IMG/VR virus record: IMGVR_UViG_3300044675_006493
Location: 1-52,135 of that record
Source: a virus
Lineage: Duplodnaviria; Caudoviricetes
Reading direction: 5' to 3' (one strand)
DNA: 52,135 bases
The notes beneath the pieces were generated by a model. That model was not told the DNA's origin, ran no database searches, and saw nothing but the letters and a program-made list of their open reading frames with translations. This document shows positions 6,078 to 52,135 of the stretch, one piece after another. Numbering within the stretch: the stretch's first letter is position 1; every line of letters starts with the position of its first letter. Both the position numbers and the translations under genes were made by a program.

Positions 6078-6289
6078 ACGGAAAACAGAAATTCGATCCA
6101 TCTTTGATGGATTATCAGAATGTTGTTGATCGTTTGAAGGCAAAAAAAGGAACGTGGTTTAGGGTTTATGAAGGTGACGTTGTTGGCGGAAAAACAGTGA
6201 AGCGTCAATTGAAGAAGCGCGGTTGTGTTGTTCACACGGAACGCATCGACGATGACGCGATTCTTAAGGCCATGTGGCCTGATTGGTGA
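6074..6289 (+). CDS. Small protein, paralog 2 of a tandem triplet
   Basis: ATGA overlap; Y-x13-W-x2-V ... LxxRG. Confidence 0.65.
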   Translation: MNGKQKFDPSLMDYQNVVDRLKAKKGTWFRVYEGDVVGGKTVKRQLKKRGCVVHTERIDDDAILKAMWPDW

Positions 6290-6290
6290 A

Positions 6291-6551
6291 ATGGGCTTCG
6301 TACTTTTTCCTGACATTTTTTTGACTGACTGGGACGTTCCTTGGCTGGTGTTTTATGAGGAATGTGTCGCTTTGGCCAAAGAAGATGAGATGGAGTGGAA
6401 GCAGATTTATCGTGGTTTCAGTCAGAAGCGTGCTGAAGGAATAGCAGCACAGATGAAAAGAAGGGGTTGCTTGTCAGCGACCCACAAGTATAGTGATGGC
6501 ACTTACGGCACTTATGCCGCTTACTGGAGGTTAGAAGATGAAGATTCATGA
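6291..6551 (+). CDS. Small protein, paralog 3 of a tandem triplet
   Basis: ATG immediately after the previous stop; Y-x13-W-x2-I ... MxxRG. Confidence 0.6.
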   Translation: MGFVLFPDIFLTDWDVPWLVFYEECVALAKEDEMEWKQIYRGFSQKRAEGIAAQMKRRGCLSATHKYSDGTYGTYAAYWRLEDEDS

Positions 6552-7191
6552 AGCACTTGCTCACGTTATGGAAGATGTGCGGGCTGTTGCAAAGAGCGAA
6601 CGTAATTCGCATCAGAACTACAATTTTCGAGGCATTGACGCTGTTGTGAATGCAGTGGGTCCCGCTTTTAGGCGTCACCAGATTGTTGTGATGCCAAAGG
6701 TCCTACACGTCGAAGCCGAGAATGTGTCAGTTGGTCGGAACAACACGCAGATGCGTTCGGTGACTATTACTGTCGAATACACTTTTGTTGGGCCTGAGGG
6801 CGATTCATTGGTGGCCACTAGCGTTGGCGAGTCGATGGATAGCGGCGACAAGGCTGTGCCAAAGGCCATGAGTGTTGCATTGCGCACCTGCCTTCTTCAG
6901 GCACTCTTGCTGCCAACTGATGAACCGGACCCAGACGAGTTTTCGTATGATCGTTCCGCGACGCAGGCAGTAAAGTTTGATGCTGCGGATCGTGGTACTT
7001 GGCCAGATGAGATCAATGTCGCTCAGGCCAAGAAGATCTTCCTTGTGGCTTGTGGCGGGGACAAGAGCGCTGCTGTTACTGCTTGGGAGCAGGCAGAAGT
7101 TGGTGAGGGGCCTTTTGCCCCTGACGAGATGGACGCCATCGTTAAGGTAGCATCGGAGTTTTTCATTACTGGTGAAGGGAGGCCGTTCTGA
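6538..7191 (+). CDS. erf: ERF-family ssDNA annealing protein
   Basis: VAKSERN..QNYNFRGIDAVVNAV.P and GESMDSGDKAVPKAMSVALRT.L.Q.L.LPTDE.DPD motifs. Confidence 0.85.
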   Translation: MKIHEALAHVMEDVRAVAKSERNSHQNYNFRGIDAVVNAVGPAFRRHQIVVMPKVLHVEAENVSVGRNNTQMRSVTITVEYTFVGPEGDSLVATSVGESMDSGDKAVPKAMSVALRTCLLQALLLPTDEPDPDEFSYDRSATQAVKFDAADRGTWPDEINVAQAKKIFLVACGGDKSAAVTAWEQAEVGEGPFAPDEMDAIVKVASEFFITGEGRPF

Positions 7192-7415
7192 TGGAACGGG
7201 ATTTTTTGGAGGACATCCGCGCTGTTATTGGCGTGGGTTTGGGAACGTCGAAACTTGATCGTGAACTGATTCGCGATGCTTTCGTTCTTGGGGCTGGAGC
7301 GGCTTCTGGTATCGCTACTCGTTTCTTGGATTTGGGTGACGAACAAGCGGAAGAACTTGCTGCTTATTCTTTGGAACTTGTGACGCAAATCGTAGAGCCG
7401 TATGAAGATGTTTGA
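7191..7415 (+). CDS. Hypothetical protein
   Basis: Translationally coupled ORF within the operon. Confidence 0.55.
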   Translation: MERDFLEDIRAVIGVGLGTSKLDRELIRDAFVLGAGAASGIATRFLDLGDEQAEELAAYSLELVTQIVEPYEDV

Positions 7416-7417
7416 TT

Positions 7418-8176
7418 ATGAGTGTTCAAGCGATTTCTTGGGTTCTTGAACATTCCAAATCCTCAAATACTGCTCGCTGCGTTCTGATCTCTATTGCCAA
7501 TCACATGGGCGGCGATGGTTCGGGTTGGGTGTATGTGGACAGGATTTGTCGTGAGGCAAACTGTTCTTTGAATTCGTATCATCGTGCAGTGCAGTGGGCT
7601 GTAGAGAACGGCGAACTGGAACGGGTGTCCCATTCTGGTGGCAGTGAACGTGTGCATGTCCGACATCGCCCGAACATGTTTCGGTTTCCGTTTCTTGAAG
7701 AGCGACCTACTCAGATTGGGGGGGAGGGAGGTACTCAGTTTGGGGACCACCCTCCTACCCAAAATGGGGAGGTCAATATAGGAGCCGTCAGTAGAGCCGT
7801 CAGTAGAGCCTCTAATGACGGGGATGTTCGTAAAGTTTTTGTTGCTTGGTGCGAGGCAACTGGTAGAAACGAAAGTCGGGTGAAGTTAACTAAGGAGCGT
7901 TTGGGGAAGATCAAGGCCCGTTTGCAGGAGGGCTACACAGTGGAAGATCTCATTGATGCTGTGAAGGGTGTCACTTTGTCCAGTTTTCATATGGGCGATA
8001 ACGATCAGAAGCAGCGTTACGACGATCTGACTACTGTTCTTCGAACTGGTTCTCAGGTGGAGAAGTTCAGCAGTTTGTGGAGGAACCCTCCGACTTCAGG
8101 GCCTTCTTCTCCTAAGGCTTTTGATGTGATCAGATCTGTCATAGGTGAACAGGAGCAGCAGTATGAACTCTCGTGA
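7418..8176 (+). CDS. Phage replication initiator (N-terminal HTH, iteron-containing linker, C-terminal domain)
   Basis: MSVQAISWV...ARCVLISIANH wHTH start. The low-complexity linker coincides with DNA repeats, as in lambda O. C-terminal KLTKERLGKIKARLQEGYTVEDL.DA. Confidence 0.8.
   Translation: MSVQAISWVLEHSKSSNTARCVLISIANHMGGDGSGWVYVDRICREANCSLNSYHRAVQWAVENGELERVSHSGGSERVHVRHRPNMFRFPFLEERPTQIGGEGGTQFGDHPPTQNGEVNIGAVSRAVSRASNDGDVRKVFVAWCEATGRNESRVKLTKERLGKIKARLQEGYTVEDLIDAVKGVTLSSFHMGDNDQKQRYDDLTTVLRTGSQVEKFSSLWRNPPTSGPSSPKAFDVIRSVIGEQEQQYELS
7704..7810 (+). repeat. Iteron array / putative replication origin inside rep
   Basis: Three imperfect palindromes of type TAC(C/T)CA-N3-TGGGG, followed by 11-bp tandem repeats (GAGCCGTCAGT/AGAGCCGTCAG). 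Confidence 0.7.
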
Positions 8177-8576
8177 GGTTGGTGAGATTCTGGGTTACCT
8201 GTCGGCCGCTTGGCCTAAGTACGAATTGTTTCCGGAGACGGTCAAGGTTTGGATCGACCAGTTTTCTGAGACGGATTTTGAGGTTGCTCAGAAGGCGGCG
8301 AGGAAGGTTGTCGCTGAAGACAACTGGTTTCCATCTGTTTCTAGATTTATCGGAATTTGTAAAACTGAGTCTAGAATGTCCGAAAGGCCGCTAGGCTGCG
8401 ATCACTGCGATAACGGTTTCGTTATCTCGGAAAGCGGAGTTGCGAGTTTCTGCGGATTTTGTAGGCAAGCGCCTAGGAGTATCCACAGGCCGCGGGTTCG
8501 TGAACTGCATTCCCCTCAGGGCAACTGGGAGGAATGTTTAGAACAAACCAGAAAGAAACTTAAGGAGACGAAATGA
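8163..8576 (+). CDS. Helicase loader/inhibitor-like protein (SPP1 G39P-like)
   Basis: EILGYLSAAWP...VKVW...F...A......FPSVS pattern immediately after the initiator; CxxC pairs. Confidence 0.6.
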   Translation: MNSREVGEILGYLSAAWPKYELFPETVKVWIDQFSETDFEVAQKAARKVVAEDNWFPSVSRFIGICKTESRMSERPLGCDHCDNGFVISESGVASFCGFCRQAPRSIHRPRVRELHSPQGNWEECLEQTRKKLKETK

Positions 8577-8766: not shown

Positions 8767-9669
8767 ATGCCTCGCATTAACAATCTCTCACCGCTATCCG
8801 TTTACCCGGGTTCCAAACGCAAAGTAGTTGATCTGATTTGGGAACGATTCGGAACTGTTAATCGTTATGTCGAATCTTTCCTAGGCTCAGGTGCAGTTTG
8901 GCTAGGACGGCCCGGAGAAAATCTGAACGGATACGGTGAGATTGTTAATGATCGATCAGGTTTGATTGTTAATGTTTGGCGTTCAATGGTTCAAGATCCA
9001 GAGCAGTTAGCAACGATTGTTGATTGGCCGGGAACAACCAATGATTTGGAAGCAAGGCAAAAGGCTTGTTTTAACGCCGCCGAAGGTTTGTCGCAAAAGT
9101 TGGAAGAAGACCCAACTTATTGCGATGTTCAACTTGCCGCATGGACTGTTTACGGTTTGAGTTGGGCTACGCACGCAAGATCTTTTATGAACGATGGCCA
9201 TTGTCGTGTTGGACGACCTTCTGCTACACCTGCTGGGGCGCACGCGGTTAGCAGGCCACCTATGCACGAATGGTTTGCAGAAATTAAAGAGCGCACCAAA
9301 AAGGCCGTCATTCTTTGCGACGACTGGAAAAAGTCTGTGACGCCAGCGTTGTTACACAGCGGCAAGAACGACATTTGCGCTGTTTTCCTTGATCCTCCTT
9401 ATGGGGAAGATCGACGCACGAACCTTTATCAGGTTGATTCAAAAACTGTTTACATGGAAGTTCTTGAATGGGCCATCGCAAACGCTGAGAACAACCGCAT
9501 CAGGATTTGTGTGGCAGGTTATGACGGCGAACATAACGTTTTAGAGGAAATGGGTTGGGAAGTTCTTGCTTGGTCTTCTGCCCAAGGCGGAGAAAGTCGC
9601 CACAAGGAACGTTTGTGGTTTTCCCCTTCTTGCATTAATGCCTCGGCAGGAGGCTTGTTTGATGGGTGA
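8767..9669 (+). CDS. N6-adenine DNA methyltransferase (Dam/D12-like)
   Basis: YPGSK, YVESFLGSGAV (motif I), EIVND, FLDPPY (motif IV). Confidence 0.85.
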   Translation: MPRINNLSPLSVYPGSKRKVVDLIWERFGTVNRYVESFLGSGAVWLGRPGENLNGYGEIVNDRSGLIVNVWRSMVQDPEQLATIVDWPGTTNDLEARQKACFNAAEGLSQKLEEDPTYCDVQLAAWTVYGLSWATHARSFMNDGHCRVGRPSATPAGAHAVSRPPMHEWFAEIKERTKKAVILCDDWKKSVTPALLHSGKNDICAVFLDPPYGEDRRTNLYQVDSKTVYMEVLEWAIANAENNRIRICVAGYDGEHNVLEEMGWEVLAWSSAQGGESRHKERLWFSPSCINASAGGLFDG

Positions 9670-10700: not shown

Positions 10701-10712
10701 AATCTTAGTATG
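10698..10712 (+). promoter_or_regulatory. -10 box of a probable leaderless terS transcript
   Basis: TAGAAT-6 nt-ATG with no SD. Confidence 0.55.
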
Positions 10713-11156
10713 AGCGCAGGAAAACTCAACGATAAAGTCCATGAGGCGATTGTTGAATCGGTTCGCCACGGGTCCTACATAACTGTTGCCGCCCAAAGCG
10801 CAGGCATCAACGTGACCACATTTCGCAATTGGCTGGAACGTGGAGAAATGGAGGAGGCGCGAATCGCCGAAGGGTTTGACGCCGATCCTAACGAAGCCAA
10901 ATATCTTGCTTTTAAACGAGACGTGGATTCAGCAAGGTCGCAGGCAGAGATTGAATCTGTCAAGGCAGTGAGAATGGCTTCTCGAAACGGTACTTGGCAG
11001 GCAGCGGCGTGGTATCTTGAACGCAGTTTCCCCCAGCGTTGGGGCAGGAACCGCATCGAAGAGATCATCGAAGAAAAGGAAGAAGCCGATCCAGATCTTG
11101 CGTTGACAAAACTTCTCGCAAAACTGGAATCGCTAGACAACAGCAATGAGCATTAG
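10710..11156 (+). CDS. terS: Terminase small subunit
   Basis: HTH (AAQSAGINVTTFRNWLERG) and WQAAAWYLERSFPQRWG; overlaps terL. Confidence 0.8.
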   Translation: MSAGKLNDKVHEAIVESVRHGSYITVAAQSAGINVTTFRNWLERGEMEEARIAEGFDADPNEAKYLAFKRDVDSARSQAEIESVKAVRMASRNGTWQAAAWYLERSFPQRWGRNRIEEIIEEKEEADPDLALTKLLAKLESLDNSNEH

Positions 11157-12591
11157 TCCTGCACAAAAAATTGCACTTCTTTCTCCAGAAGAGAAACTCC
11201 AACTTCTAAATGAATTGTCTGACGAAGAACGTCAGGCCCTAGAAGATTACTGGCCCTTTTGGGCGCGTGAAGAGCAATTGCCTCCAGAAGGCTCTTGGTC
11301 TGTTTGGCTTTTCATGGCAGGTCGTGGTGCTGGCAAAACTCGTTCTGGTGCTGAATGGGTCAAACATCGATGCTCAACTTTGGACGTTCCGGGTGGAGTT
11401 CCTCGTGGTGCTTTGGTTGCACCAACACTTGAAAACGTCAGATTGGTTATGGTGGAAGGCGAGTCAGGTCTTCTGCGCGTTTTGCCGCCGTCCATGCTGG
11501 TGAACGGTTCGGTAGAAGATTCTTGGAACCGTGTTGCTTGCGAATTGACGTTGGCGAACGGTGCAAAGATGAAGGGATTCAGCGCTGAGAAGGCGGCTAG
11601 GTTGCGCGGCCCGCAGCACCACTTTGTTTGGTTGGACGAACCAGCAGAGTTCCGTGACGCTCATCTTGGCCTTAAAGAAGACACTACTTTTGCTATGGCT
11701 TTGATTGGTTGTCGTTTGCCTCCAGATCCTCGTTTGATGGCTACGGGTACACCAAAGAACGTTCGTTTAATTCATGATCTTTTGGGTGACTCTGGGACTG
11801 TGGTTACTAGAGGAACCACTTACGACAATCTGATTAACCTTGGTTCTGAATATCGTCAACGAATCCTTGAACGCTACGAGGGGACGAGGCTGGGTCGTCA
11901 GGAATTGATGGCTGAACTTTTGACAGACGCAGGAGCGGTTTTTACGCGTTCTTGGTTTCCTCAAACGACTGTTCCCCTTCAGGGTCCTAGCGTGAAAAGG
12001 ATTCGTGCTTGGGACTTGGCTGCGACAGAACCATCGGACGGCAATCCTGATCCTGACTGGACGGTTGGCGCTATGGTCGCTTGGGATCCTCTGAAAATGG
12101 TTGAGGGTTCAGAAGTGCCGGGTGTGTTGCAAATCCAAGACATTGCCCGTTGGAGATTGGGTCCGGGTGCAACACAGGACAAAGTTTTGCGCCATACAAA
12201 AGTTGATGCCTTGCCGCGTGTCCTCATTGAAAAAGAACCGGGTTCTGCTGGCAAGTCGTTGATTTCCGCTTATGGAAGAGCGATGTCAGGTCTGGCCAGA
12301 GTTGAAGGCATCGCCCCTAGCGGAGATAAGCAGACGAGGGCGGAGGTCTGGTCGCTTTTGGCCGAGCAGGGGCGTGTCACCGTTTTGGAAGGTGACTGGA
12401 TTCCAGATTTTTACAACGAGTTGGAAGAATTCCCTATGGGTGCGCACGATGACCAAATCGACGCTGTTTCTTTGGCGGCGGCTTGGTTGACAGGTAGACG
12501 TGCTGCTCGGAGACGCCAAAAGGTTCCTGCTTCGAAACTTCAATTAGGAAAAACTCGCATCTCCAGTAAACCAATTGCTAGATTGCGCTAG
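11146..12591 (+). CDS. terL: Terminase large subunit
   Basis: Walker A GRGAGKT, LRGPQ, Walker B WLDE; nuclease motifs AWDLAA and HDDQIDA. Confidence 0.95.
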   Translation: MSISPAQKIALLSPEEKLQLLNELSDEERQALEDYWPFWAREEQLPPEGSWSVWLFMAGRGAGKTRSGAEWVKHRCSTLDVPGGVPRGALVAPTLENVRLVMVEGESGLLRVLPPSMLVNGSVEDSWNRVACELTLANGAKMKGFSAEKAARLRGPQHHFVWLDEPAEFRDAHLGLKEDTTFAMALIGCRLPPDPRLMATGTPKNVRLIHDLLGDSGTVVTRGTTYDNLINLGSEYRQRILERYEGTRLGRQELMAELLTDAGAVFTRSWFPQTTVPLQGPSVKRIRAWDLAATEPSDGNPDPDWTVGAMVAWDPLKMVEGSEVPGVLQIQDIARWRLGPGATQDKVLRHTKVDALPRVLIEKEPGSAGKSLISAYGRAMSGLARVEGIAPSGDKQTRAEVWSLLAEQGRVTVLEGDWIPDFYNELEEFPMGAHDDQIDAVSLAAAWLTGRRAARRRQKVPASKLQLGKTRISSKPIARLR

Positions 12592-12600
12592 AATCTAACC

Positions 12601-12837
12601 ATGACTACAATTAACGGTTGTACAGTTACTTCTGAAGACGGTTCTGTTATTTTCAAGCGTCAAAGGGTTGCTGTCGAAGATGGTGGAAGATTCACGTCTG
12701 TTGATCGCAGGACAGGGCGTGTCCGTTTGGATGCGTCGAATGCTTCCTTGGAAAAGACTGGAAAGAATCGTTGGGTTCTTTCTTCCCCTGAAGGGAATTT
12801 TGTGATTACGAAATCAGGGTGTGGGTGTGGCCGCTAA
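12601..12837 (+). CDS. Small hypothetical protein with a C-terminal GCGCG motif
   Basis: Preceded by TAGAAT-6 nt-ATG (12589-12603). Confidence 0.6.
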   Translation: MTTINGCTVTSEDGSVIFKRQRVAVEDGGRFTSVDRRTGRVRLDASNASLEKTGKNRWVLSSPEGNFVITKSGCGCGR

Positions 12838-13759
12838 AGCCAAAGTTGCTGTTGTAGGCAACCCCAATTGGAAATGGAACGCTGAATCTGATTGGATCGA
12901 CGCTTTTCGCAATGAGGGGCACCAAGCAAAAATTGTTGATGAGGTTCTTTCTCCAAAAGACATTCTCGCTTCTGTAAAGGATTGCGACGTTGTTTTGTGG
13001 ATCTCATCTAGGGGCAATCACACCAAAGAATTTGTCAGGGACATTTCTTCCAAGAGGCGCACGGTTGCTTGGCACGCCGATTTGTTTTGGGGTTTGAGCC
13101 GTCCCAATTGGCAGGATTCCTGTATGTGGGCCTGCGATTTGGTTTTTACCGCCGATGGGGGTCACGAAAAAGAATGGGAAGAAATGGGCGTGAACCATTT
13201 CTGGATGCTTCCCGCCGTGAGAGAAGTCTGGACGAAATCCAACGGCATCCTTAAACAGAAATTTGATTGCGATGTTGCTTTTGTTGGCAACGATGGTCGT
13301 TCCTATCACAAGGAATGGCCTTATCGTTCAGAATTGATTTCTGCTTTGAGGGACATGTGTCTGAAAAACGGTTGGAGTTTCAGAAACCCGGGTGGTTCTT
13401 CTCCTAGGGTGGAACGCAACCGCCAAATGAATGATTTTTATAGATCTGCCCGCGTCACTGTTGGGGATAGCCTTTGTCTAGATTATGACAAATCTCTATA
13501 TTGGTCGGATCGTGTCTACGAAGCGTGTGGTAGGCGAGGTTTTCTGATCATGCCCCACATTGACGCCCTAGAGGCCCAAAGCGAAAATAGAGTCCCTTCC
13601 TACCAGTGGGGGGACTGGAACGGCTTAGAGAGCAAAATAGGGGCCTTTCTGGGCAATCCTGACGAACGTTCTACGATTAGCGGGAACTGCCGTGCTTGGG
13701 TGGCGGAAAACCATACCTATAATCATCGTGTGCGTTCTTTGTTGGCGATGCTGCCTTAA
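12821..13759 (+). CDS. Glycosyltransferase (CgeB/GT-B-like)
   Basis: DVAFVG...R..L...MNDFYRSARVTVG...YWSDRVYEACG.GFLI...HTYNHRV. Confidence 0.85.
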   Translation: MGVAAKAKVAVVGNPNWKWNAESDWIDAFRNEGHQAKIVDEVLSPKDILASVKDCDVVLWISSRGNHTKEFVRDISSKRRTVAWHADLFWGLSRPNWQDSCMWACDLVFTADGGHEKEWEEMGVNHFWMLPAVREVWTKSNGILKQKFDCDVAFVGNDGRSYHKEWPYRSELISALRDMCLKNGWSFRNPGGSSPRVERNRQMNDFYRSARVTVGDSLCLDYDKSLYWSDRVYEACGRRGFLIMPHIDALEAQSENRVPSYQWGDWNGLESKIGAFLGNPDERSTISGNCRAWVAENHTYNHRVRSLLAMLP

Positions 13760-13776
13760 CAACGTGAAATAGGAAT

Positions 13777-14799
13777 TTGGGGAAACAAATGCGGCTAGGA
13801 ATGCTCGTCAGGGACGACAACGGCGGATTGGGAAATCTTACCTATGACGCTTTTTCTAATTTGAGGCCAGACGTTACTGTCATAGTTCAGTCACGACCCT
13901 GTAGGGGAGAACCAAGACCCCACCTGTTCGAAGAAGCATGGACAGAAACAATCTGTGTCGAAAACCCAATTACTGACGCCCAGTGGGAGACAATCGCCCC
14001 TAAAGCAGACATTTGGTGGACAGCAGAAACTTGGTACAACGACAACGCAGAATCAATTATTAAAAAGGCTGGAGGGAAAACCGTTCTTTATGCGATGCCA
14101 GAACTGTTTTCTGGTTCGTCAGCAGATCAAATTTGGAACCCAACCCAATATCTTCAAAACAGGCTTCCCCTTAATTCCAAAGTCGTTCCTTGGCCAACAT
14201 CACCGCCAGAAAATTGGTTCCCTAAAACCAAAGTATCCAAAATCCTCCATATCTCAGGCGGCGCACAATACGACCGAAACGGGACAGAGATCTTTCTTGA
14301 TTCTTTGCAATACGTTGAAGGTGAATGCGAAATTATTCTTCATCAACCCGATGGAAAGAATCTCACCACGAATCTTCATCGCAGGAAATTCGCAAAAGGA
14401 ATCAAGATCAACCACAGCACGGACTACGAAAAGTCTCTCAACTCTTACATGAGATGGGCAGACGCGCTTGTCCTACCTCGTCGTTACGCCGGTCTTTGTC
14501 TCCCAGCATTTGAAGCGTTCGGCTATGGATGCCTTGTGGCAATGCCTGAAGTTGATCCGCAGGCGTTTTGGCCCATCATTGGTTTTCAGGCGATAAAGGA
14601 ACGTCCTCGCTTGATGAAGGGTGGGAAAATCCCCATGTGGAACATGGAACCCTTTGTTCTCGCCAAACAAATAAATGTCATGCTTGAATGGGACGTTCCA
14701 ACAGTCGTAAGGCTCTCAGAGGAAGGGCGAACTTGGGCTGAAAAGAACTCTTGGGAAAACCTTCTTGAAACATGGAAGACGGCTTTCCAGAATGTTTAG
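13777..14799 (+). CDS. Glycosyltransferase (GT4-like)
   Basis: DNGGLG, LHISG...DRNGTE, ADALVLPRRYAGLCLPAFEA.G.G. Confidence 0.8.
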   Translation: MGKQMRLGMLVRDDNGGLGNLTYDAFSNLRPDVTVIVQSRPCRGEPRPHLFEEAWTETICVENPITDAQWETIAPKADIWWTAETWYNDNAESIIKKAGGKTVLYAMPELFSGSSADQIWNPTQYLQNRLPLNSKVVPWPTSPPENWFPKTKVSKILHISGGAQYDRNGTEIFLDSLQYVEGECEIILHQPDGKNLTTNLHRRKFAKGIKINHSTDYEKSLNSYMRWADALVLPRRYAGLCLPAFEAFGYGCLVAMPEVDPQAFWPIIGFQAIKERPRLMKGGKIPMWNMEPFVLAKQINVMLEWDVPTVVRLSEEGRTWAEKNSWENLLETWKTAFQNV

Positions 14800-15340
14800 A
14801 TACCGGGATAAAACGCTTCGACATTTTTGGCATCCGTACAACTGGACCCACACAAACGAGAGGCAAGTAGAACTTCCCGTTGTTTTTGATTGGTTGAGCA
14901 GGCGTTCGGGTTCAGGGCTTGAAGTAGGAAACGTAACGCCCAACTACATTTCAACAAACCATCATGTAATCGACATTGTTGAAAAGCATGATCACGTTGA
15001 TAACACAAATCTATTCGATATTGAAGGAACTTACGATTGGATTCTGGCAATCTCAACAATTGAACATGTTGGATGGGACAACGAAATAGGTAAGCGAAAT
15101 CCGTTTGAAGCCATTTGTCATCTGCTTTCACTACTCGCTCCAAATGGGTCCATGATGGTTACCGTCCCCGTTGGCTACAACTGGACGTTGGATCAAGACC
15201 TAACAGAGGGGACTGGTGCAGATAGATGGGGTTGCGTTTATCGCAGTCAAGGAGAATGGGAATACAAAGAAGGCTTCAAATGGGAGCCGTACACAATTGG
15301 GGCTTGCTCCGTGTGGTTTGGTGAATGGGGACCAGAATGA
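14792..15340 (+). CDS. SAM-dependent methyltransferase-like protein
   Basis: NERQVELP, GLEVGNV, YDWILAISTIEHVG, LAPNG.MMVTVP. Confidence 0.65.
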   Translation: MFRYRDKTLRHFWHPYNWTHTNERQVELPVVFDWLSRRSGSGLEVGNVTPNYISTNHHVIDIVEKHDHVDNTNLFDIEGTYDWILAISTIEHVGWDNEIGKRNPFEAICHLLSLLAPNGSMMVTVPVGYNWTLDQDLTEGTGADRWGCVYRSQGEWEYKEGFKWEPYTIGACSVWFGEWGPE

Positions 15341-15777
15341 AAGTCAATTTGGGTTGCGGGAAAGACATTAAAAAGAACTGGGTTAACTGCGATCAGCATC
15401 CCCTAGAGGGCGTAAACGTCGTAATGAACCTTGACGAGTTCCCATGGCCGTTCGAAGACTCGTCCGTTGACGAAATCTTTGCTTCCCACGTATTCGAACA
15501 TGTTGGCAAACCAATTGAGTTCGTTTTGGAGTGTTGGAGAATCCTGAAAAAGGGGGGTAAGGCAACCATTGTTTGTCCTCACTGGACTTCAGAAAACGCC
15601 TTTACCGATCCGACACACGTTAGATTCGTGACAGATCGCACCTTTGATTACTGGTGTGAAGGAGAAATGTTGAACGGGCCTTTGGGGGCACAGTTCCTAG
15701 GCGACACATTTAAATTCAGAAAACAAAATGTTCGTCGCAACGGAGGCGACATCATCTTTTTCCTCAGGAAAATTTGA
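15337..15777 (+). CDS. Class I SAM-dependent methyltransferase (Methyltransf_11-like)
   Basis: VNLGCG, PWPFEDSSVDEIFASHVFEH, RILKKGG, DPTH. Confidence 0.85.
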   Translation: MKVNLGCGKDIKKNWVNCDQHPLEGVNVVMNLDEFPWPFEDSSVDEIFASHVFEHVGKPIEFVLECWRILKKGGKATIVCPHWTSENAFTDPTHVRFVTDRTFDYWCEGEMLNGPLGAQFLGDTFKFRKQNVRRNGGDIIFFLRKI

Positions 15778-15778
15778 A

Positions 15779-16840
15779 ATGAAGATTCACGCTCTTGCTT
15801 CCTTCAAACACTACATCGACCATATAGCCCCAATCTGGCGTTCGCTTGATCCTGACCTCACGGGAAATTTCGTAGTTAACAATTTGGCGATGAGCAGGTA
15901 CGCGGAATCCCTAGGGATCTACGCCCAACCCATGAAGCAGGCAGGTCGCCTCAACTTTGCCCTCAGGACACAAGACCCAATTTTGGTTGCTGGTTATACC
16001 GACCTTCAAAAGGTCCACAAGCGCCCCATCGTTTTTATCGAACACGGGGCGGGACAAACATACATTAGGAATGATGGCAGCATCCACGGCGGATACTCGG
16101 GTGGAGTCAACAGGGACAAGATTGGCTTCTACGTTTGCCCCAACGAAACGGTCTTGCAACGCAACTTGAAGGCTTATCCTGATGCACAAGGCATCGCTGT
16201 TGGAAGTCCCCGCTTAGATGATCTGTCTTTCGAACGAAAACTGGCAGCGCCTAGAAACGAACTAAACATAGGCATTGCTTTCCACTGGGATTGCAACATC
16301 GCTCCAGAGGCAGGCTCAGCGTTCTCCGACTTCTATTACAAGATTCCAGAATTTGTGAAATACGCCCAGACATGCGGAATGAACATTGTGGGGCACGGCC
16401 ATCCTCGTGCATGGTCCTATCTTTACGGTTGGTGGAAGGACCAAAAAGTCAGAACTGAATCTGACTGGTTGAAGGTGAGTTCAGAAATCGATTTGCTTAT
16501 CATCGACAACAGTTCCATTCTTTTTGAAGCGGCGGCATTGGACATTCCGGTTGTTTTGATGGAATCAAGCAAGTGGCGTAAGAACGTTCATCACGGACTG
16601 AGATTCTGGGATTACGCAGATATAGGGCCGTCAGTCACCAAAGACGACGATCTTGGCGAAGCGATATCTGAAGCGTTCCACAAAAAATACGCAAAACGCA
16701 GAAAAGAAGCCTCGTCTGCCGTGTATGCATGTCCGCCAATGCTGGATAGAATGTACCAATACTCATCCACTCAGGATAGGTTGTCCTCGCGCAGAGCCGC
16801 TGCCGAGATCATTCATTGGTGTCAGAAAGGAAAACGTTAG
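15779..16840 (+). CDS. GT-B fold glycosyl/phosphotransferase (TagF/capsule-synthesis-like)
   Basis: FIEHGAG, VGSPRLD, GHGHPR, DLLIIDNSSILFEAAALDIPVV. Confidence 0.7.
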   Translation: MKIHALASFKHYIDHIAPIWRSLDPDLTGNFVVNNLAMSRYAESLGIYAQPMKQAGRLNFALRTQDPILVAGYTDLQKVHKRPIVFIEHGAGQTYIRNDGSIHGGYSGGVNRDKIGFYVCPNETVLQRNLKAYPDAQGIAVGSPRLDDLSFERKLAAPRNELNIGIAFHWDCNIAPEAGSAFSDFYYKIPEFVKYAQTCGMNIVGHGHPRAWSYLYGWWKDQKVRTESDWLKVSSEIDLLIIDNSSILFEAAALDIPVVLMESSKWRKNVHHGLRFWDYADIGPSVTKDDDLGEAISEAFHKKYAKRRKEASSAVYACPPMLDRMYQYSSTQDRLSSRRAAAEIIHWCQKGKR

Positions 16841-39267: not shown

Positions 39268-40329
39268 TCAATTTTCTGATGTGGCTTGCTGCGCCAAGAT
39301 GCGAAAAGCGTGGGCGGCTTGTTGTGGAACTACCCCATTACCCAAAAGTTTTAACTGTGCAGTTCTAGAATCAACAATGTCGGTTACCCAACCTTCGGGC
39401 AGCCCCATCATCCACTCAACAAACGAAGCGTTCAGTCTTCCGGAGGCATCAACGGCATCTGGAGCGCATCGCCCAACCACGAACTCCCATCGGGCAATCG
39501 CTGGTCCGTACTGTCCAAATCGGTCATGACCATCACTACAGCGTTTAAAGGCAGGGTGTTTCGTTTCATCTGCGCAGGACCGCCCGTGTTGGACGCGTCC
39601 TGACAGGTAGGAGTCGGCAAAAGATGGGGAATATCCCATAAGTTCCTGCCAAAAGCATTCGCCCCCACATCCGGTGTCGCCCCATGTTTGCTTGCTTGCG
39701 CTGTTGGGGTCGGCATGAGACGCATCGCTTCGATTTCCAAACTGCGTCCGTGACCGTTCCCGTTCCCGTGTTTCGCTTTCATTTCTGATGTCCAAGCGTC
39801 CCACTGTTCCACAGTTTTGCGGGCACCCATGTCCACCACTGTCGGTGTAGGCAAGACAGAACCAGCGAAGTCTGTTATGAGGCGCTCCGACTTCTGCCGC
39901 TGGTAAATGTGTCCATTCCGCAGAGAACCCGTTTTCGGCCAAAGCAGAAACAACTCTGGAAAAAGCATGTCCACCGTTAGCGGTACAAATGCCTGAGACG
40001 TTTTCGAGGAGGAGGAATTTGGCTCCAGCCTCGCGACCAATTCTGCAAACATCGTCAATCAACCAGCGTTCGTCTTCCATCCCGAGCCGTTTACCGGCCT
40101 GAGACACCGGTTGACATGGGAAACCTGCTGTTACCACATCCACCGAAGGTGGATTCGAAATTTTTGTTAAATCACCTAAACCGACCGATGTCTTGAACCG
40201 TGTGGACATGACATGGTTTGCGTGGTTGTCGGTGTCTGAAAACCATGCTAGTTCGGTTTGTGTGCCGATGTGTTGCAAAGCGAGTTCTAACCCGCCGTAG
40301 CCTGCGCACAATGCACCAATTTTGATCAT
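39268..40329 (-). CDS. C5-cytosine DNA methyltransferase
   Basis: LCAGYGG (I), GFPCQ (IV), ENV (VI), R.RWF (VIII), LGNGVVPQ (X). Confidence 0.9.
   Translation of the reverse strand: MIKIGALCAGYGGLELALQHIGTQTELAWFSDTDNHANHVMSTRFKTSVGLGDLTKISNPPSVDVVTAGFPCQPVSQAGKRLGMEDERWLIDDVCRIGREAGAKFLLLENVSGICTANGGHAFSRVVSALAENGFSAEWTHLPAAEVGAPHNRLRWFCLAYTDSGGHGCPQNCGTVGRLDIRNESETRERERSRTQFGNRSDASHADPNSASKQTWGDTGCGGECFWQELMGYSPSFADSYLSGRVQHGRSCADETKHPAFKRCSDGHDRFGQYGPAIARWEFVVGRCAPDAVDASGRLNASFVEWMMGLPEGWVTDIVDSRTAQLKLLGNGVVPQQAAHAFRILAQQATSEN
39432..40058 (-). CDS. Overlapping alternate-frame polypeptide nested in the C5 MTase (LPTP-repeat, beta-subunit-like)
   Basis: 208-aa open frame with SKTSQ..WPKTGSLRNG and three (L/M)PTPT repeats. 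Confidence 0.55.
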   Translation of the reverse strand: MTMFAELVARLEPNSSSSKTSQAFVPLTVDMLFPELFLLWPKTGSLRNGHIYQRQKSERLITDFAGSVLPTPTVVDMGARKTVEQWDAWTSEMKAKHGNGNGHGRSLEIEAMRLMPTPTAQASKHGATPDVGANAFGRNLWDIPHLLPTPTCQDASNTGGPAQMKRNTLPLNAVVMVMTDLDSTDQRLPDGSSWLGDALQMPLMPPED

Positions 40330-40637
40330 GAGGTTGTTGTTAGCAGCACTTCGAACTTGATGGGTTCGTTATCAAAACGGTCCTGAACCCAAACGTCGTC
40401 ATAGCCTTCTTCAACCCATTCCATCGCCAAATTTAAAGCCTCTGACGCCGACAACAAACAAAGGTTTACTTCTCCGCCACCAACCCAAACAGACCAGTTT
40501 TCGTCCTTGCTATGCGAAAACCAATCCTCAACAAACGTGTTTACGCCCAACTTTGCAACCTCCAAAAACAAAAACAACAACACCAACACACTACCAACCC
40601 AAACCCCAAACAACAACCCCACCCACCCAGCCAACAA
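40326..40637 (-). CDS. Hypothetical protein
   Basis: WSVWVGGGEVN...A..LA.EW.EEGYDDV pattern; the true start may be internal. Confidence 0.5.
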   Translation of the reverse strand: MLAGWVGLLFGVWVGSVLVLLFLFLEVAKLGVNTFVEDWFSHSKDENWSVWVGGGEVNLCLLSASEALNLAMEWVEEGYDDVWVQDRFDNEPIKFEVLLTTTS

Positions 40638-40880
40638 CCATGGATAGAACCAGCGAAACCGACATATAAATAATAATTACTTACGGCTCTACTTACGGCT
40701 CTTTATTGACCCCCCCAAACTGGGGAGGAGGGAGGTACCCAAAATGGGGAGGTCACAACCAACCTGACCTACCCAAAATGAGTACCACACAATTAACACA
40801 AAAATAACAAAACCCAAAAACAGAATCTAACCATAGATTGAAAAAACACCGAACAAAATCCGCAACCATGGATAGAACCA
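40635..40880. repeat. 18-bp direct repeat CAACCATGGATAGAACCA (40635-40652, 40863-40880)
   Basis: Exact copies flank the second iteron array; the 13-bp core recurs at 48475-48487. Confidence 0.75.
40664..40786 (-). repeat. Second, inverted iteron array with an AT-rich flank (putative origin)
   Basis: TACCCAAAATGGGGAGGTCA is identical at 7756-7775 and 40736-40755; the reverse complement reproduces the AGAGCCGT(C/A)AGT repeats of the rep array. Confidence 0.7.
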
Positions 40881-41121
40881 AAAAACGTACAAACAACAAA
40901 CCATGACGTCCGAATAGGGGCCAGAGGCCCGCGGTCCGAAACCGAGAACGATTCCCAACCCGCGGGCAGGGGTAAGGGGGCAAAGGTGGGGCATGCCCTG
41001 AGAGGGTCCTAGAATGCCCTGTGTCGAGGTTGGGGGGATCCTGGGGTACTTACCCCCTAGTTGGGGGGTGGATCGCAGTAGGGGGCCTTGTGGGGGCCTT
41101 AGAGGGAATCTGAGAAAATGC

Positions 41122-41149
41122 TTGACTTCCGCGGTGGGATCCCTAGAAT
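41122..41149 (+). promoter_or_regulatory. Near-consensus sigma70/SigA promoter
   Basis: TTGACT-16 nt-TAGAAT. Confidence 0.65.
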
Positions 41150-41258
41150 GGTCTCTGTCAGGGGCTAGCCACGATGGCGCCGCTGGCCTGAGATCCTTGA
41201 AAACCGAGCATGTCGTCTAGTGGGGGCCATGGCCGCACCTACCTACAGAGGAGCAACC

Positions 41259-41582
41259 ATGTCCATTTCCATTACCACTGTCCCGATGTCCATCATGACC
41301 GAGCGGGCCGCGTCATCGTCTTTCGATTTCGCGGCGGTCCTAGCGGCGGCCCTTGCGGCCGCGGCGGATTCCCAAGCCATCACTGTGAACACTGATGACG
41401 GCGAGGGTTGGGTCACGAGCACGGCCAACGGCCATGTCAGGGGGCTACAGGAGCGCCACGGTCCGGCATTCCTGACGGCGCAAGGCTTGACCGATCAATA
41501 CGTGGTCAAGGCAGGCGTGACGGGTCAGGGCATGCCTGACGGCCGCAAAGCGGTCAAGGTGGCCCTTGTCCCCAAGCCATAG
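41259..41582 (+). CDS. Hypothetical early protein (107 aa)
   Basis: SD GAGGAG before ATG, downstream of the promoter. Confidence 0.65.
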   Translation: MSISITTVPMSIMTERAASSSFDFAAVLAAALAAAADSQAITVNTDDGEGWVTSTANGHVRGLQERHGPAFLTAQGLTDQYVVKAGVTGQGMPDGRKAVKVALVPKP

Positions 41583-41757
41583 CACTAGCGGAGAATCTAG
41601 AACCTAGAACCTAGTCCCGCGGTCGTGGCCCCCACTAGGCGACATGCTCGACGGCGCCACGCTGCCATCGGGTCCCCGACAGGGGACGCGGTGACGGTAC
41701 GGCGCGGACCGCTACGGCCGACGGCCGTCAGGCGGGTACCGCGTGCCGCCCAGGTGC

Positions 41758-41831
41758 CAGAACATATGTTCGACGAACACCCGTTCGACTCCGCCACGGA
41801 TCGAACACCCGTTCGACGAACACCCGTTCGA
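41758..41831. promoter_or_regulatory. Array of four LexA (SOS) boxes
   Basis: GAAC-N4-GTTC cores at 41760, 41775, 41803 and 41818; 41801-41816 is a perfect TCGAAC-N4-GTTCGA. Confidence 0.8.
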
Positions 41832-42045
41832 CGCCGCGCGGCGCGCGGACCGAGGCGGGGAGCGGCCATGGGCGGCCGGCTCCAATGGGCGGAAAGTTTT
41901 CGGGTTGGGCTTTGACGGTCCGCGGAAATTTTTTTTTCGGCGAAAACTTTTTGTTCGGGTTGCCCAGTTTTTTGTGTGTGTTGTTTCGGTTATGTGTTTC
42001 ATGAGTTGTCGAACGGTTTTGTTCGGCTTTGAGAATGGAGCGGTT

Positions 42046-42444
42046 ATGGATAGAGAAGTGCGGTTTTGTTTTCCTATCGGAGATGATGATGTTTCGGTTG
42101 GGGGGGAGGTTCGGATCTTTCCTCACGACGCGGATTGCGACGGAATGGTTCGGTTGGAGTTCGTTGACGGTTCTGAGCGGTCTGTGTTGGTACTGACTGA
42201 CACGGAAGCGAAACGGATTGCTGACGGATTTGATGCGGTGTTTAGCGGTTTGTTGGAATCGCAGTTTTGTGCGGGTGTGTTGATCGTTGAGGCGGGCTGG
42301 ACATCTAGCGGAGCCAAGCGGGTGTTGTTGTTTTCGGACGATCACGACGAGAGAGTTTGTTTTCGGATTGAGTGCGGGATTATGTTCTCGCATTCTTTGC
42401 GGAACATGGCGACACTTATCGGATACTGGGAACAGTTCGGGTAG
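42046..42444 (+). CDS. Hypothetical protein
   Basis: SD GGAG before ATG; followed by a terminator. Confidence 0.5.
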   Translation: MDREVRFCFPIGDDDVSVGGEVRIFPHDADCDGMVRLEFVDGSERSVLVLTDTEAKRIADGFDAVFSGLLESQFCAGVLIVEAGWTSSGAKRVLLFSDDHDERVCFRIECGIMFSHSLRNMATLIGYWEQFG

Positions 42445-42477
42445 GTTGCCGTAAGTTTCCATCGGACATGGACGGGG

Positions 42478-42522
42478 AAACCCCCAGTCGTTACCTGTAC
42501 GGGTTTCGGCTGGGGGTTTTTT
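42478..42522 (+). terminator. Intrinsic terminator
   Basis: AAACCCCCAGTCG / CGGCTGGGGGTTT stem plus T-run. Confidence 0.7.
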
Positions 42523-42737
42523 CGTACCCTTTTTGCGCGGACTTTAACGGGGTTTTTGCGGGGCTTTTTCGGAGACCCCCCCTAATGTTTTTTCGGACCC
42601 CCGGTACCCCCCCCTACCCTTTCGGGAAGCGAACTATACGGTGCTACGGAAACGAAGTGTTTGCCGTGCGGTTGCCGTCCGCCGCGTCTCGTCGCGCTGG
42701 CGGACATCGGAACCGTGTGGTTTCCGAAAGGAATGGT

Positions 42738-42771
42738 GAAGGCCCGCCCCCCGTGTGAGGAGCGGGCCTTC
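42738..42771 (-). terminator. Hairpin closing the leftward early operon
   Basis: GAAGGCCCGC / GCGGGCCTTC 10-bp stem; weak U-tract. Confidence 0.5.
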
Positions 42772-42793
42772 CGTTGTAGGGGCTACTGATCCG

Positions 42794-43042
42794 TTAGAAC
42801 ATGTGTTCCGCTACTGCTGGTCCGCCACCCGAACCAAAGTTGATGACCGCTTGACTCAACAACCGTTCTAACTCTTCGTTGTCCGAACAATCCGCCCAGT
42901 CGCGAGTAACCGAAACGATTGTACATCCGTGAAGTTCCGTGTAGGTTTCGCCATCCGCGAGAACCATGTAATACCGTTTGTTGGGTTGCTGCCATCCGTC
43001 TGGCAGGTCAACCGTGTCCCACCATGTTTGTTTCCGTTTCAT
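42794..43042 (-). CDS. Hypothetical protein
   Basis: SD GGAGG before ATG; MVLADGETYT.L.GC.IV pattern. Confidence 0.6.
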   Translation of the reverse strand: MKRKQTWWDTVDLPDGWQQPNKRYYMVLADGETYTELHGCTIVSVTRDWADCSDNEELERLLSQAVINFGSGGGPAVAEHMF

Positions 43043-43103
43043 GTTTCCTCCGTTGTTTAGTAGGGGGTCCGACCACCACGACAATGGCCGAACCCCCCGA
43101 TGT

Positions 43104-43958
43104 TTATGGGCCTTCCGAACCTAGGGAAAGTTCCGCGATGGCCCTGTAGTGGTCGTCAAGCCGAGCAAACTCCGATGCTTGTGCGTGTTCCGTGGGCTGC
43201 CAACACATACAGTTTTCCGCGCTTTCTTCGCACAGCCAACAGAATCCGCACTCTTCGCAGTCCGTGTTGGAGTAGTCCGACTCTGCCCGCCAGATGTGTA
43301 GACAGTTTTTACAGGACATGTAATCGTCCGTTGCCCGCGGTGTGGACATGGTGGACGTAATACCGCTAAGGCTGTAGATACCGCTAGCGCTGTACCGCGA
43401 TGGACGCCAAGCCTCGTAACTCCGATTGGACCACCACACTCCGTCATCCCAATGTCCGAGATGTTCGTTCATGATGTAAATGCCGTATTCCGTGTCAGGG
43501 TGCGCAGACAGAAAAGCCGCTTTGCTGGTGCCCAACCACTTTTCCGTTTTGGCCCACCACTCGTCGTCGTCGATCCGCGATGGCTCAACCGACTTGAGGT
43601 TCTCTTCCGTCCAAATCCGTGTGTCCGACTTGCGTCGTCCGGGCTTGATGGGCAGAACTCCGTTGTGAGCGATAGCGATCCGCTCATCGTGCGCCCAAGT
43701 GAACGGGTGACAGTTTTGAACCGTCTCTCCGCCACCTGTGGAGAACCGATGATGGAAGATGCCCCAACAATCCGTGTGGGCCTCCCACACCGATCTGAAC
43801 TCTGTCCACGCTTCCGTGAAATCCATGGACCGAAATCGTGCGATGTGACCGTCAAGGAGGATGGCCCAACCGAACCCGTCAGGGTTGTTGTGCGCCGCTT
43901 CCAACATCCGCTCGTCGTTTAGTTCCGCTTCGTTTGAAAAAACCGTAAGTAGACACAT
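43104..43958 (-). CDS. Class II (Ntn) glutamine amidotransferase
   Basis: Met-Cys start; NPDGFG, HHRFSTGG, NCHPF, AHNGVL, SDT motifs; C-terminal CxxC pairs. Confidence 0.9.
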   Translation of the reverse strand: MCLLTVFSNEAELNDERMLEAAHNNPDGFGWAILLDGHIARFRSMDFTEAWTEFRSVWEAHTDCWGIFHHRFSTGGGETVQNCHPFTWAHDERIAIAHNGVLPIKPGRRKSDTRIWTEENLKSVEPSRIDDDEWWAKTEKWLGTSKAAFLSAHPDTEYGIYIMNEHLGHWDDGVWWSNRSYEAWRPSRYSASGIYSLSGITSTMSTPRATDDYMSCKNCLHIWRAESDYSNTDCEECGFCWLCEESAENCMCWQPTEHAQASEFARLDDHYRAIAELSLGSEGP

Positions 43959-50587: not shown

Positions 50588-50923
50588 GTGGTGGCAGCCC
50601 GACGCGATCTAGAGGTTTATCAGGGCGACACGTTCACCCATGAGATTCGCATTGTTGATGCGGATGGTGATCCGATCAATGTGACGGGTAGAACGTTTGA
50701 GTCGCAGGTAAGGCGTCGTACTTCTTACGACACTATCGAAGCAACGTTTTCTGTAGATACGTCTCAGGCCGCGACTGGTGTTGTGGTTTTCACCATTGAT
50801 GCTGCCACTTGCGCCGATTTGGAGACAGGCGTTCATCGTTACGATGTTCACCAAATTGTTGGCGGTGTGGTTTTGACTTTGGTTTATGGTCGGGTCAACA
50901 TTCGTGGTGAGGTCACCCGTTGA
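50588..50923 (+). CDS. Virion/fibre-associated beta protein
   Basis: YQGDTF...PINVTG...SQVR...G.V.F.I...T..L..G..RYDV pattern typical of genes preceding collagen fibres; TATAAT at ~50548. Confidence 0.65.
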
Positions 50924-52135
50924 GCAGCGAACAAACAACTGTTGTTGTTGATTCTGGTGCTGTCACAACTGTTGAGGTTGTAGACGAGCAGGTCACAATC
51001 GTTTCGATTGAGGATCGTGCTGTCACCATTATTGGTACTGGCGAGATTGGTCCTGCTGGCCCGCAAGGTGCGACAGGGCCGCAGGGTGTAACAGGGCCGC
51101 AGGGGGCTGCTGGGCCTACGGGTGCGACAGGTGTTCAAGGTCCTACAGGGCCGCAGGGTTCCACCGGTCCTCAGGGTCAGATCGGTCCCCATGGCCCGAC
51201 TGGTCCGACCGGCCCCATCGGGCCGCAGGGCGCTACGGGCGCTATCGGGGCGACGGGCGCTGTTGGCCCAACTGGGGCTACGGGTGTTCAGGGGGCCACG
51301 GGTGCTGTTGGCGCTACCGGAGCGGTTGGTCCTACGGGTGCGACCGGGGCGGTTGGTGCGACAGGACCGCAAGGTGCTGTGGGTGCGACGGGGGCGACCG
51401 GTCCGCAGGGCGCTCAGGGGCCGGTAGGCGATACAGGTCCGCAGGGTCAGACAGGACCTCAGGGCGCTATTGGACCGCAGGGTGCGACGGGTGCGGTTGG
51501 TGCGACTGGGGACACCGGCCCGCAAGGTCCGCAAGGTCCGACAGGTTCGCAGGGCGACACGGGGGATACCGGCCCTCAGGGTCCTACCGGTCCGCAGGGT
51601 GTGACAGGTCCTCATGGTGACACGGGGGCGACAGGTCCTCAGGGACCTCAGGGTGCCACAGGTCCGCAGGGTGCGACCGGCTCGCAAGGACCGACCGGCC
51701 CTCAGGGACCTCAGGGGGCAATTGGCCCGCAGGGTGATACGGGTGCGACTGGCGACACCGGCGCGACTGGCGACACCGGACCTACCGGTCCGCAGGGTGT
51801 TATAGGTCCGCAGGGTCCTGTAGGAGCGACTGGTCCGCAGGGCGATACCGGACCGACTGGTCCGCAGGGTTCAGTTGGCGCTACTGGTCCGCAGGGCGAC
51901 ACTGGCCCTCAGGGTTCTACCGGTCCACAAGGGGCCGTTGGCCCGCAAGGGGCGACTGGTGCGACTGGTTCGCAAGGCCCGACTGGCCCGCAGGGGGATA
52001 CAGGCCCAACCGGGCCGCAAGGCGCGATTGGGGCGACCGGTCCGCAAGGCGACACAGGACCGCAGGGTGCTATTGGCCCTCAGGGCGCTACAGGTGCGCA
52101 AGGGCCGCAAGGCGCTACGGGAGCGACGGGTGTTC
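50920..52135 (+). CDS. Collagen-like fibre protein, N-terminal part (3' partial)
   Basis: TTG start overlaps the upstream TGA; ~121 uninterrupted Gly-X-Y triplets from 51040 to the window end. Absent from the ORF track because there is no stop. Confidence 0.85.

Follow-up and report, generated by a model that had tools for sequence, protein, structure and literature searches.

LexA-type operator sites clustered on an accessory island of a putative freshwater actinophage

The IMG/VR virus record IMGVR_UViG_3300044675_006493 (Duplodnaviria; Caudoviricetes) was analysed over its whole length: 52,135 bases of linear class, with a CheckV completeness estimate of 50%, here called the window. At 41759-41830 it carries an array of four palindromes, GAAC-N4-GTTC, which very probably are operators of the host LexA protein, judging by their sequence. 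The original prediction had reported these palindromes, and all four are indeed present: box 1, AGAACATATGTTCG, at 41759-41772, with one mismatch to CGAAC-RNNY-GTTCG; and boxes 2, 3 and 4, each CGAACACCCGTTCG, at 41774-41787, 41802-41815 and 41817-41830. They form two pairs. The 15-bp period within a pair was described correctly, but the 43 bp said to separate the pairs is the repeat period, the real gap being 14 nt. The plus strand at 41760-41837 thus comprises two copies of a 35-nt two-box unit, which are 89% identical. Because boxes 2-4 do not differ even in the spacer, the array appears to be a recent duplication of a tandem operator pair.

The core GAACNNNNGTTC (GAAC-N4-GTTC) has five matches in the window: the four boxes and 42797-42808. 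All five fall inside about 1 kb, and four inside 72 bp; shuffled sequence gives a mean of 1.46 matches, and one of 100 shuffles reaches five. The longer consensus, CGAACRNNYGTTCG, is matched exactly by boxes 2-4 and with one mismatch by box 1. Scanning the window with this actinobacterial LexA consensus yields 16 matches at up to two mismatches, of which the array boxes are the sole ones at one mismatch or none. The fifth core had been predicted too. It is present, but weak: the full palindrome (42796-42809) has two mismatches to the 14-mer and coincides with the last four codons and stop of a minus-strand open reading frame (ORF; 42794-43084). Possibly it is a chance match, since one stray match is the chance expectation.

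The array lies inside a small plus-strand island, with minus-strand genes on either side. Leftmost is a promoter-like site, TTGACT-16-TAGAAT (plus strand, 41122-41149), which matches at 10 of 12 positions, is the sole such site in 40600-43200 and is a candidate start for a rightward unit. There follows a G+C-rich orphan gene of 107 aa (plus strand, 41259-41582), for which large protein searches found two homologues alone, 56-58% identical and on tiny contigs. The array itself sits in an untranslated spacer (41583-41879) of about 70% G+C that is rich in 6-bp palindromes. Next come a T-rich leader (plus strand, 41880-42045), marked by the motifs CCAATGGG, TTTGA, GAAATTTTTTTTT and AGTTTTTTGTGTG, and a second orphan gene, of 132 aa (plus strand, 42046-42444), which has a G+T-rich coding strand without 6-bp palindromes and which matched only itself in large protein searches. 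Its ATG, at 42046, is 216 nt past the array, in agreement with the predicted distance of about 215 bp. Beyond it lie a terminator-like hairpin followed by a T-run (plus strand, 42478-42525; 21-nt arms, 81% complementary), a C-rich non-coding element containing GACCCCCCCTAAT, GGTACCCCCCCC and GGGAAGCGAAC (plus strand, 42566-42635), and a G+C-rich hairpin (42738-42771) between the rightward island and the convergent minus-strand genes. The C-rich element may mark a boundary, or it may be a promoter or a terminator.

That the array is non-coding, as predicted, is borne out by codon-position composition: the ORFs overlapping it have G+C contents of 0.78/0.68/0.65 and 0.67/0.78/0.66 at the three positions, with no coding pattern, whereas the upstream gene at 41259-41582 gives a coding-type 0.63/0.52/0.75. 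Folded as RNA, the spacer gives a very stable structure (z = -4.4); this stability results from the palindromes, and no conclusion is drawn from it. Neither the leader motif nor the -10-like motif is repeated elsewhere in the window above chance, and Rfam has no match in 40200-43300 at E up to 1. Viral contigs searched with the two genes beside the array yielded no relatives, and a near-identity search of cultured phages with 41000-43500 yielded no match. The composition of the surroundings is strongly skewed: G+T-rich strands diverge from the G+C-rich centre (minus strand, 40375-40975; plus strand, 41875-42475), the small genes in both arms have G+T-rich coding strands, and the extremes reach -0.67 and +0.50 for GC skew and +0.65 and -0.53 for AT skew.

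Three independent lines point to LexA as the protein that the boxes match: the candidate host clade; the tandem design at SOS genes; and a constraint on the spacer. The mycobacterial SOS box is TCGAAC-N4-GTTCGA. Five Actinomycetota genomes with a related capsid gene in a prophage were taken; in each, the lexA gene is accompanied by boxes of the same form as those in the array (1, 2, 2, 4 and 4 boxes within about 350 bp). A search for the tandem design, two boxes at a 15-bp period, in a single genome of each prokaryote species gave at least 120 stretches. Among the 80 matches listed, 31 Actinomycetota loci were picked by name, and at each the first ORF of at least 80 aa starting within 150 nt on either side of the boxes was translated. 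Tandem boxes flank lexA and/or a LysM gene at 22 of these 31 loci (lexA at 14, LysM at 20); lexA with a divergent LysM gene is the classic mycobacterial SOS pair, lexA-Rv2719c. At five further loci the flanking genes are of repair type (a PHP polymerase domain; RNase_T twice, once with GIY-YIG; DUF6504 twice), and at the remaining four the flanking genes are without family. As for the spacer, in the 64 distinct viral arrays introduced below, read on both strands, the first spacer position is a purine (A or G) and the fourth a pyrimidine (T or C) in 95% of boxes. This R..Y spacer is the Gram-positive LexA consensus. The predicted identity of the box as an actinobacterial LexA operator is thus supported both at lexA/LysM loci and in the candidate host clade.

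The array and the actinobacterial lexA/LysM operators share the GAAC-N4-GTTC core, the CG/CG flanks, the R..Y spacer and the tandem 15-bp period. They differ in two respects. Host boxes adjoin a promoter -10 or -35 hexamer, for example in the order TACAAATA, box, box, ribosome-binding site, whereas the boxes of the window have no such hexamer. In addition, the window array is doubled to four boxes, and is located on a phage.

The host itself is judged to be a freshwater actinobacterium, given that the phage's capsid relatives all come from Actinomycetota and that the stretch was found in lake water. In prokaryote genomes the capsid protein finds 14 relatives, whose best segments are 33-74% identical (35-40% where coverage is best); every one comes from Actinomycetota, and nine belong to Acidimicrobiia. 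The stretch is present in 21 lake-water metagenome runs, with no RNA run among the sequencing runs listed. Two WhiB genes in the window (Pfam/PHROGs) likewise support an actinobacterial host. Neither an integrase nor a CI/Cro-type repressor was found among 63 ORFs (Pfam), 44 ORFs (PHROGs) and 26 ORFs (Pfam), so the earlier statement that the phage has no recognisable repressor or integrase stands.

Arrays of this kind recur in other phages. The tandem pattern occurs in 89 stretches of IMG/VR, representing 64 distinct arrays, against two stretches for a reversed control pattern. At least three boxes lie within 300 bp in 30 of the 64, and the phages concerned span 31-69% G+C. For 120 of the 130 ORFs adjoining these arrays, Pfam gave no family at an E-value cutoff of 1e-4; the remaining ten include two WhiB, DUF932, an SNF2 helicase, a YqaJ exonuclease and a phosphoesterase, with no repressor or integrase among these ten. 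The preponderance of familyless neighbours, and the absence of repressor and integrase, suggest that the viral arrays lie among orphan, early-type actinophage genes.

Cultured phages provide further examples. A BLAST search with the array matched 21 records, from 11 Gordonia and 10 Mycobacterium phages, mostly in unannotated DNA close to the right genome end. Three were inspected: Commandaria, JacoRen57 and Silverleaf. Gordonia phage Commandaria carries three exact boxes, with a fourth, near box, all inside about 70 bp (box cluster at 59409-59470). The cluster lies in a 620-bp spacer between divergent units, a replication operon reading leftward and 16 hypothetical genes reading rightward. In 28-68 kb of this phage, the annotation lists neither an integrase nor an immunity repressor. 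Mycobacterium phage JacoRen57 has the promoter sequence TTGACA-17-TATAAT with two boxes directly after it. In Silverleaf, two boxes lie in a 1.1-kb repeat-filled spacer. The placement in Commandaria and JacoRen57 implies that the boxes stand at early promoters, in operator-like positions, in at least some actinophages. The JacoRen57 promoter and its two boxes (record about 51,600-51,700, near the right genome end) are antisense to annotated hypothetical genes; they may mark an unannotated SOS-controlled transcript.

Close relatives of the phage show that the place of the array can be filled otherwise. Five records (G001-G005) were compared, all fragments that are 32-49% complete. The closest by capsid protein is G002, the sister phage, at 93% identity, followed by G001 at 90%. 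The G002 record begins just left of the spot homologous to the array, and its positions 963-1031 (L146) match the C-rich element of the window at 82%, although the genes that flank the element are not the same in the two phages. In the G002 slot, seven perfect DnaA boxes, TTATCCACA, surround a single LexA-type box, GAACAGGTGTTC; among the relatives' records, only G002 has such a DnaA cluster. When the two phages are aligned, the single G002 box falls on box 2 of the window; the leader that follows is homologous, with all the motifs given above. The genes behind the two leaders have no detectable relation. This combination, a homologous leader with differing site clusters and differing downstream genes, indicates that the slot is regulatory and modular. 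On the sequence comparison, then, the island is best described as accessory and mosaic, the site cluster being an exchangeable module ahead of a conserved leader.

Upstream of its DnaA cluster, G002 also has a duplicated G+C-rich segment of about 130 bp with many CTCGAC words (L173 1-190, L146 1-125), where the contigs end. When metagenome contigs were scanned with the C-rich element, two contigs from a single metagenome matched, one of each type. The second window-type contig has 6 differences in 3699 bases, all outside the boxes. The array is also unaltered in contigs of four lake metagenome DNA runs, which represent near-identical strains. These four runs gave no variant or alternative joint at the array, from contigs that break at 41000-41140 and 41772-41819, none spanning the whole stretch.

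These observations suggest a tentative model, which we favour while granting it considerable doubt: LexA bound to the array would gate the rightward early expression of the leader and the gene at 42046-42444, and SOS would lift the gate. That gene is most likely the one under array control, to judge by its position. Up to four LexA dimers would occupy the 72-bp array on entering or replicating phage DNA and would keep RNA polymerase out of the leader and the downstream gene. The gate could act as a roadblock, a role that the original prediction had likewise offered, to transcripts from the promoter-like site at 41122-41149, or as the upstream operator of an unrecognised promoter in the leader. 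RecA-stimulated self-cleavage of LexA, following DNA damage or nuclease attack on the phage DNA, would open it. We infer the occupancy by LexA, the effect on transcription and the relief by SOS. The array would then be an SOS-responsive accessory cassette, rather than a master switch between lysis and dormancy, in a slot that takes interchangeable host-factor modules.

Several observations weigh against this gate. No sigma-70-type promoter overlaps the array, as had been predicted, and no -35 or -10 hexamer adjoins any box; the nearest promoter-like site is that at 41122-41149, some 610 bp upstream. Nor does the T-rich leader, on reading its sequence, contain a convincing sigma-70 promoter. 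Between the gene at 41259-41582 and the array there is a stable G+C-rich hairpin without a T-run, so the array may fall outside the transcription unit of that gene. The identity of boxes 2-4 points to a young duplication, not a lineage-conserved array, and conservation in related phages was not found: G002 has DnaA boxes instead; the fragment records of G001, G003 and G005 hold no box; and that of G004 holds one off-consensus match only. Loci of 18 distant relatives of the 296-aa neighbouring protein contain no array either (15 lack any box, and three have one off-consensus match). Finally, by crude ORF and hexamer rules, the 48 viral arrays flanked on each side by an ORF of 70 aa or more comprise 6 in divergent, 30 in co-directional and 12 in convergent surroundings, and a -35-like hexamer adjoins a box in 6 of the 64 viral arrays, the same number as in a shifted control. 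By the same rules, TANNNT adjoins a box in 22 of the 64, compared with 13 in the control.

Comparison with known systems helps to delimit the proposed gate. In GIL01, a tectivirus of Bacillus thuringiensis, host LexA together with gp7, a small phage protein that stabilises LexA on DNA, serves as the phage repressor, and one strong site plus one half-site are described at promoter P1, which controls lytic genes (PMC4551915). Like GIL01, the window phage lacks a CI-type repressor and carries host LexA sites; those of GIL01 lie downstream of a transcription start. The window differs from GIL01 in having four full sites on an accessory island, far from the replication and structural genes. All boxes are inside 41.0-42.8 kb, and none is near the initiator gene (7.4 kb), the terminase genes (10.7 kb) or the structural genes. 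A GIL01-like master switch for dormancy, which the original prediction had offered as one possibility, is therefore unlikely: the island is accessory; its boxes are remote from those genes; and the array is not conserved in the lineage, its place being taken by DnaA boxes in the nearest relative, with at most an off-consensus match in the fragment records of the others.

Cluster A mycobacteriophages, L5 among them, have stoperators: repressor sites within transcription units, where they block elongating polymerase. The same blocking mechanism would apply to the window, if the array lies within the rightward unit. Stoperators, however, are asymmetric, are scattered by the dozens over the genome and are bound by the phage's own repressor, whereas the window sites are palindromic, clustered and matched to a host protein.

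A second explanation takes the slot as a docking site. Along the lines of the injection-stop region of phage T5, bound LexA, or DnaA with LexA, would physically bar or anchor the phage DNA where an early DNA block has its edge. This would pause DNA entry, tether the DNA or insulate domains, and the sites would not be a classical operator. We consider this unlikely, though by analogy it has some appeal. The LexA array and the DnaA cluster of the sister phage share one slot, and the two kinds of box also cluster elsewhere: of the 89 DnaA boxes in the 89 viral loci, 52 are no more than 300 bp from the tandem LexA boxes, and 12 of the 89 loci have at least two DnaA boxes within that distance, often directly abutting. 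Moreover, most viral arrays are not placed at promoters. The T5 genome (AY543070) supplies a counterpart. Its palindrome CTGTATAAATATACAG (CTGT-N8-ACAG), which we take to be the E. coli LexA consensus, occurs twice, at record positions 6213-6228 and 9411-9426; each copy is 11 nt from DnaA boxes, and the second is within the annotated injection stop signal. The T5 injection-stop region has eight conserved DnaA boxes, and membrane-bound DnaA has been proposed to stop injection (10.1101/866236). That role of DnaA is itself a hypothesis, however, and that preprint contains no mention of LexA.

T5, a virulent phage, parallels the phages considered here in that its host DnaA boxes form a cluster in non-coding DNA next to a perfect LexA-type palindrome; sister phage G002 shows the same pairing. 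T5 departs from them in its E. coli host, in the CTGT-N8-ACAG type of its box and in the location of the cluster, in a terminal repeat with a known role in DNA entry. The window, unlike T5, has LexA boxes only: it contains no DnaA-box cluster, its 10 scattered matches at up to one mismatch comparing with a shuffle mean of 9.5. Its record is a linear assembly. Its terminase is of the T4-like type, and T4-like terminases often pack by headful, so there is perhaps no fixed first-entering end.

Composition boundaries bear on the same explanation. At 7 of 46 testable arrays the G+T excess changes from negative to positive by more than 0.2, as against 2.4% of control positions, and in the window the count of 6-bp palindromes drops from 18 in 41501-42000 to none in 42001-42500. 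The palindrome-free stretch, however, is only about 0.5 kb long and consists of one G+T-rich gene, so the notion of a large restriction-site purge ending at the array was rejected. The block from 42 to 47 kb is merely lower in palindromes (observed/expected about 0.4, against 0.5-0.8 elsewhere), and no T5-like, first-entering block is claimed. That actinophages, uncultured and cultured, carry interchangeable host-factor cassettes of LexA boxes, DnaA boxes or both, which act as an SOS-opened physical barrier at the edge of an early palindrome-poor block, is unlikely but not negligible.

Two side observations concern composition as such. In two unrelated viral contigs the plus strand is extremely C+A-rich left of the LexA/DnaA cluster (L049, 10800-13150; L073, 1500-2900), with a G+T excess of -0.4 to -0.6 that flips at the cluster. 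The L049 block includes a plus-strand SNF2 helicase gene; this Pfam-supported gene is itself C+A-rich, so the switch there is not due to gene strand. In the window, 6-base palindromes have observed/expected ratios of 0.4-0.8 over most of the genome and 1.1-1.2 in 39-43 kb. Nine such words are absent: AAGCTT, ACTAGT, CAGCTG, CTCGAG, GAGCTC, GGGCCC, GTCGAC, GTGCAC and TAGCTA. This depletion suggests restriction avoidance.

Another possibility raised by the original prediction was a decoy. As phage copies rise, they would draw LexA off host operators and so turn on SOS genes without DNA damage; in a DnaA version, DnaA would be drained and host re-initiation blocked. Consensus-grade, clustered sites that are not tied to a promoter would suit such a sink, as would growth by duplication of a two-box unit and the swap with seven perfect TTATCCACA boxes, and an SOS-induced host could benefit the ERF recombinase, exonuclease and SSB that the phage itself encodes. 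A sink could lie anywhere, however, whereas in two phage types the cluster is found at the same spot before a conserved leader, and in Commandaria the cluster occupies the main divergent control region. With only four sites per genome the load would also be small. Titration is thus quite unlikely to be the purpose of the array.

The array might instead be part of a second origin region, with LexA modulating firing or stalling the fork. The site had been described as near a putative origin, and this holds to the extent that a tandem pair of the exact 12-nt iteron GAGCCGTAAGTA (minus strand, 40678-40701) lies about 1 kb to the left, beside a 36% G+C stretch. The only other exact pair in the window (7782-7805) is inside the O/G38P-like initiator gene, and a 19-nt motif, ACCCAAAATGGGGAGGTCA, is common to both places (7757-7775 and 40737-40755). 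Exact iteron pairs and the shared motif thus define two origin-like sites, 33 kb apart, and the second iteron element is conserved in relatives G001 and G002. The phage has SPP1-like genes (a G39P-like loader, ERF, exonuclease and SSB), and in the sister phage the DnaA boxes are followed by a T-rich stretch, as in a chromosomal origin. SPP1 has two origins, oriL and oriR, and its initiator at oriR is proposed to stall the fork before recombination-dependent replication (PMC3485210). The window resembles SPP1 in its initiator gene with internal iterons, its G39P-like loader and its distant second set of iterons. This likeness concerns the neighbouring iterons, however, and not the LexA boxes; in the abstract of that paper, no LexA sites are described for SPP1. 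The iterons and the 36% G+C stretch lie at 40678-40900, the array itself has neither iterons nor DnaA boxes, and a promoter-like site and a gene separate the two places. About 13 kb of the sister record lies between the iteron element and the DnaA cluster; G001 has the iteron element without a cluster nearby; and the window, as noted, lacks a DnaA cluster altogether. A role in replication control is, in our judgement, decidedly improbable.

That the boxes are bound by a phage-encoded protein, or are a young neutral duplication without function, would fit their near-identity and their absence from the sampled relatives, but is very improbable: the DNA-binding proteins found are the initiator and the two WhiB only, a phage binder cannot explain one motif shared by 64 arrays of unrelated phages across the whole range of G+C and by host lexA, and the pattern's excess over its control in IMG/VR speaks against it. 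What probability remains belongs to readings not yet thought of.

The window as a whole has about 49% G+C, with some G+C-rich patches. Pfam and PHROGs identify an ERF recombinase (6538-7191), a lambda-O/SPP1-G38P-like replication initiator (7412-8176), a G39P-like helicase loader (8145-8576) and small and large terminase subunits (10710-12591), along with portal, capsid, tail and lysis genes, an SSB and an exonuclease. Two DNA methylases are also encoded, one a C5 methylase and the other an N6-adenine methylase. The small ORFs of the window have no Pfam family. Directly after the terminase (12821-16840) come two glycosyltransferase-like and two or three methyltransferase-like genes, a block that is unusual for a siphovirus-type layout and may serve virion or DNA modification. 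Collagen triple-helix repeat genes at 2-1192 and 50920-52134 are on the same strand and open at both record ends; probably the assembly broke within one repeat gene of a circularly permuted genome, in which case the CheckV completeness may be an underestimate.

Host LexA sites are reportedly also present on the temperate phages CTX-phi, 186 and N15. On phages generally such sites were already known from a few temperate systems, GIL01 included (PMC4551915). What is different here is the combination: a multi-operator array; no adjoining promoter hexamer; a phage without lysogeny genes; and a DnaA cluster in the same slot of the sister phage. In open-access papers and bioRxiv, no description was found of a LexA array without an adjoining promoter in a phage without lysogeny genes, of its exchange for a DnaA cluster, or of its recurrence among uncultured actinophages.

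If the barrier explanation were true, LexA would be more than a transcriptional repressor, serving as a structural gate for DNA entry, fork progression or domain insulation, and the slot would be an actinobacterial counterpart of the T5 injection-stop region. The question may also bear on the old puzzle of injection stop in T5. Similar boxes in phages of Gordonia terrae and Mycobacterium smegmatis make the question testable at the bench. More broadly, many actinophages may read or exploit host proteins of DNA damage and replication status at the boundary of their early genes.

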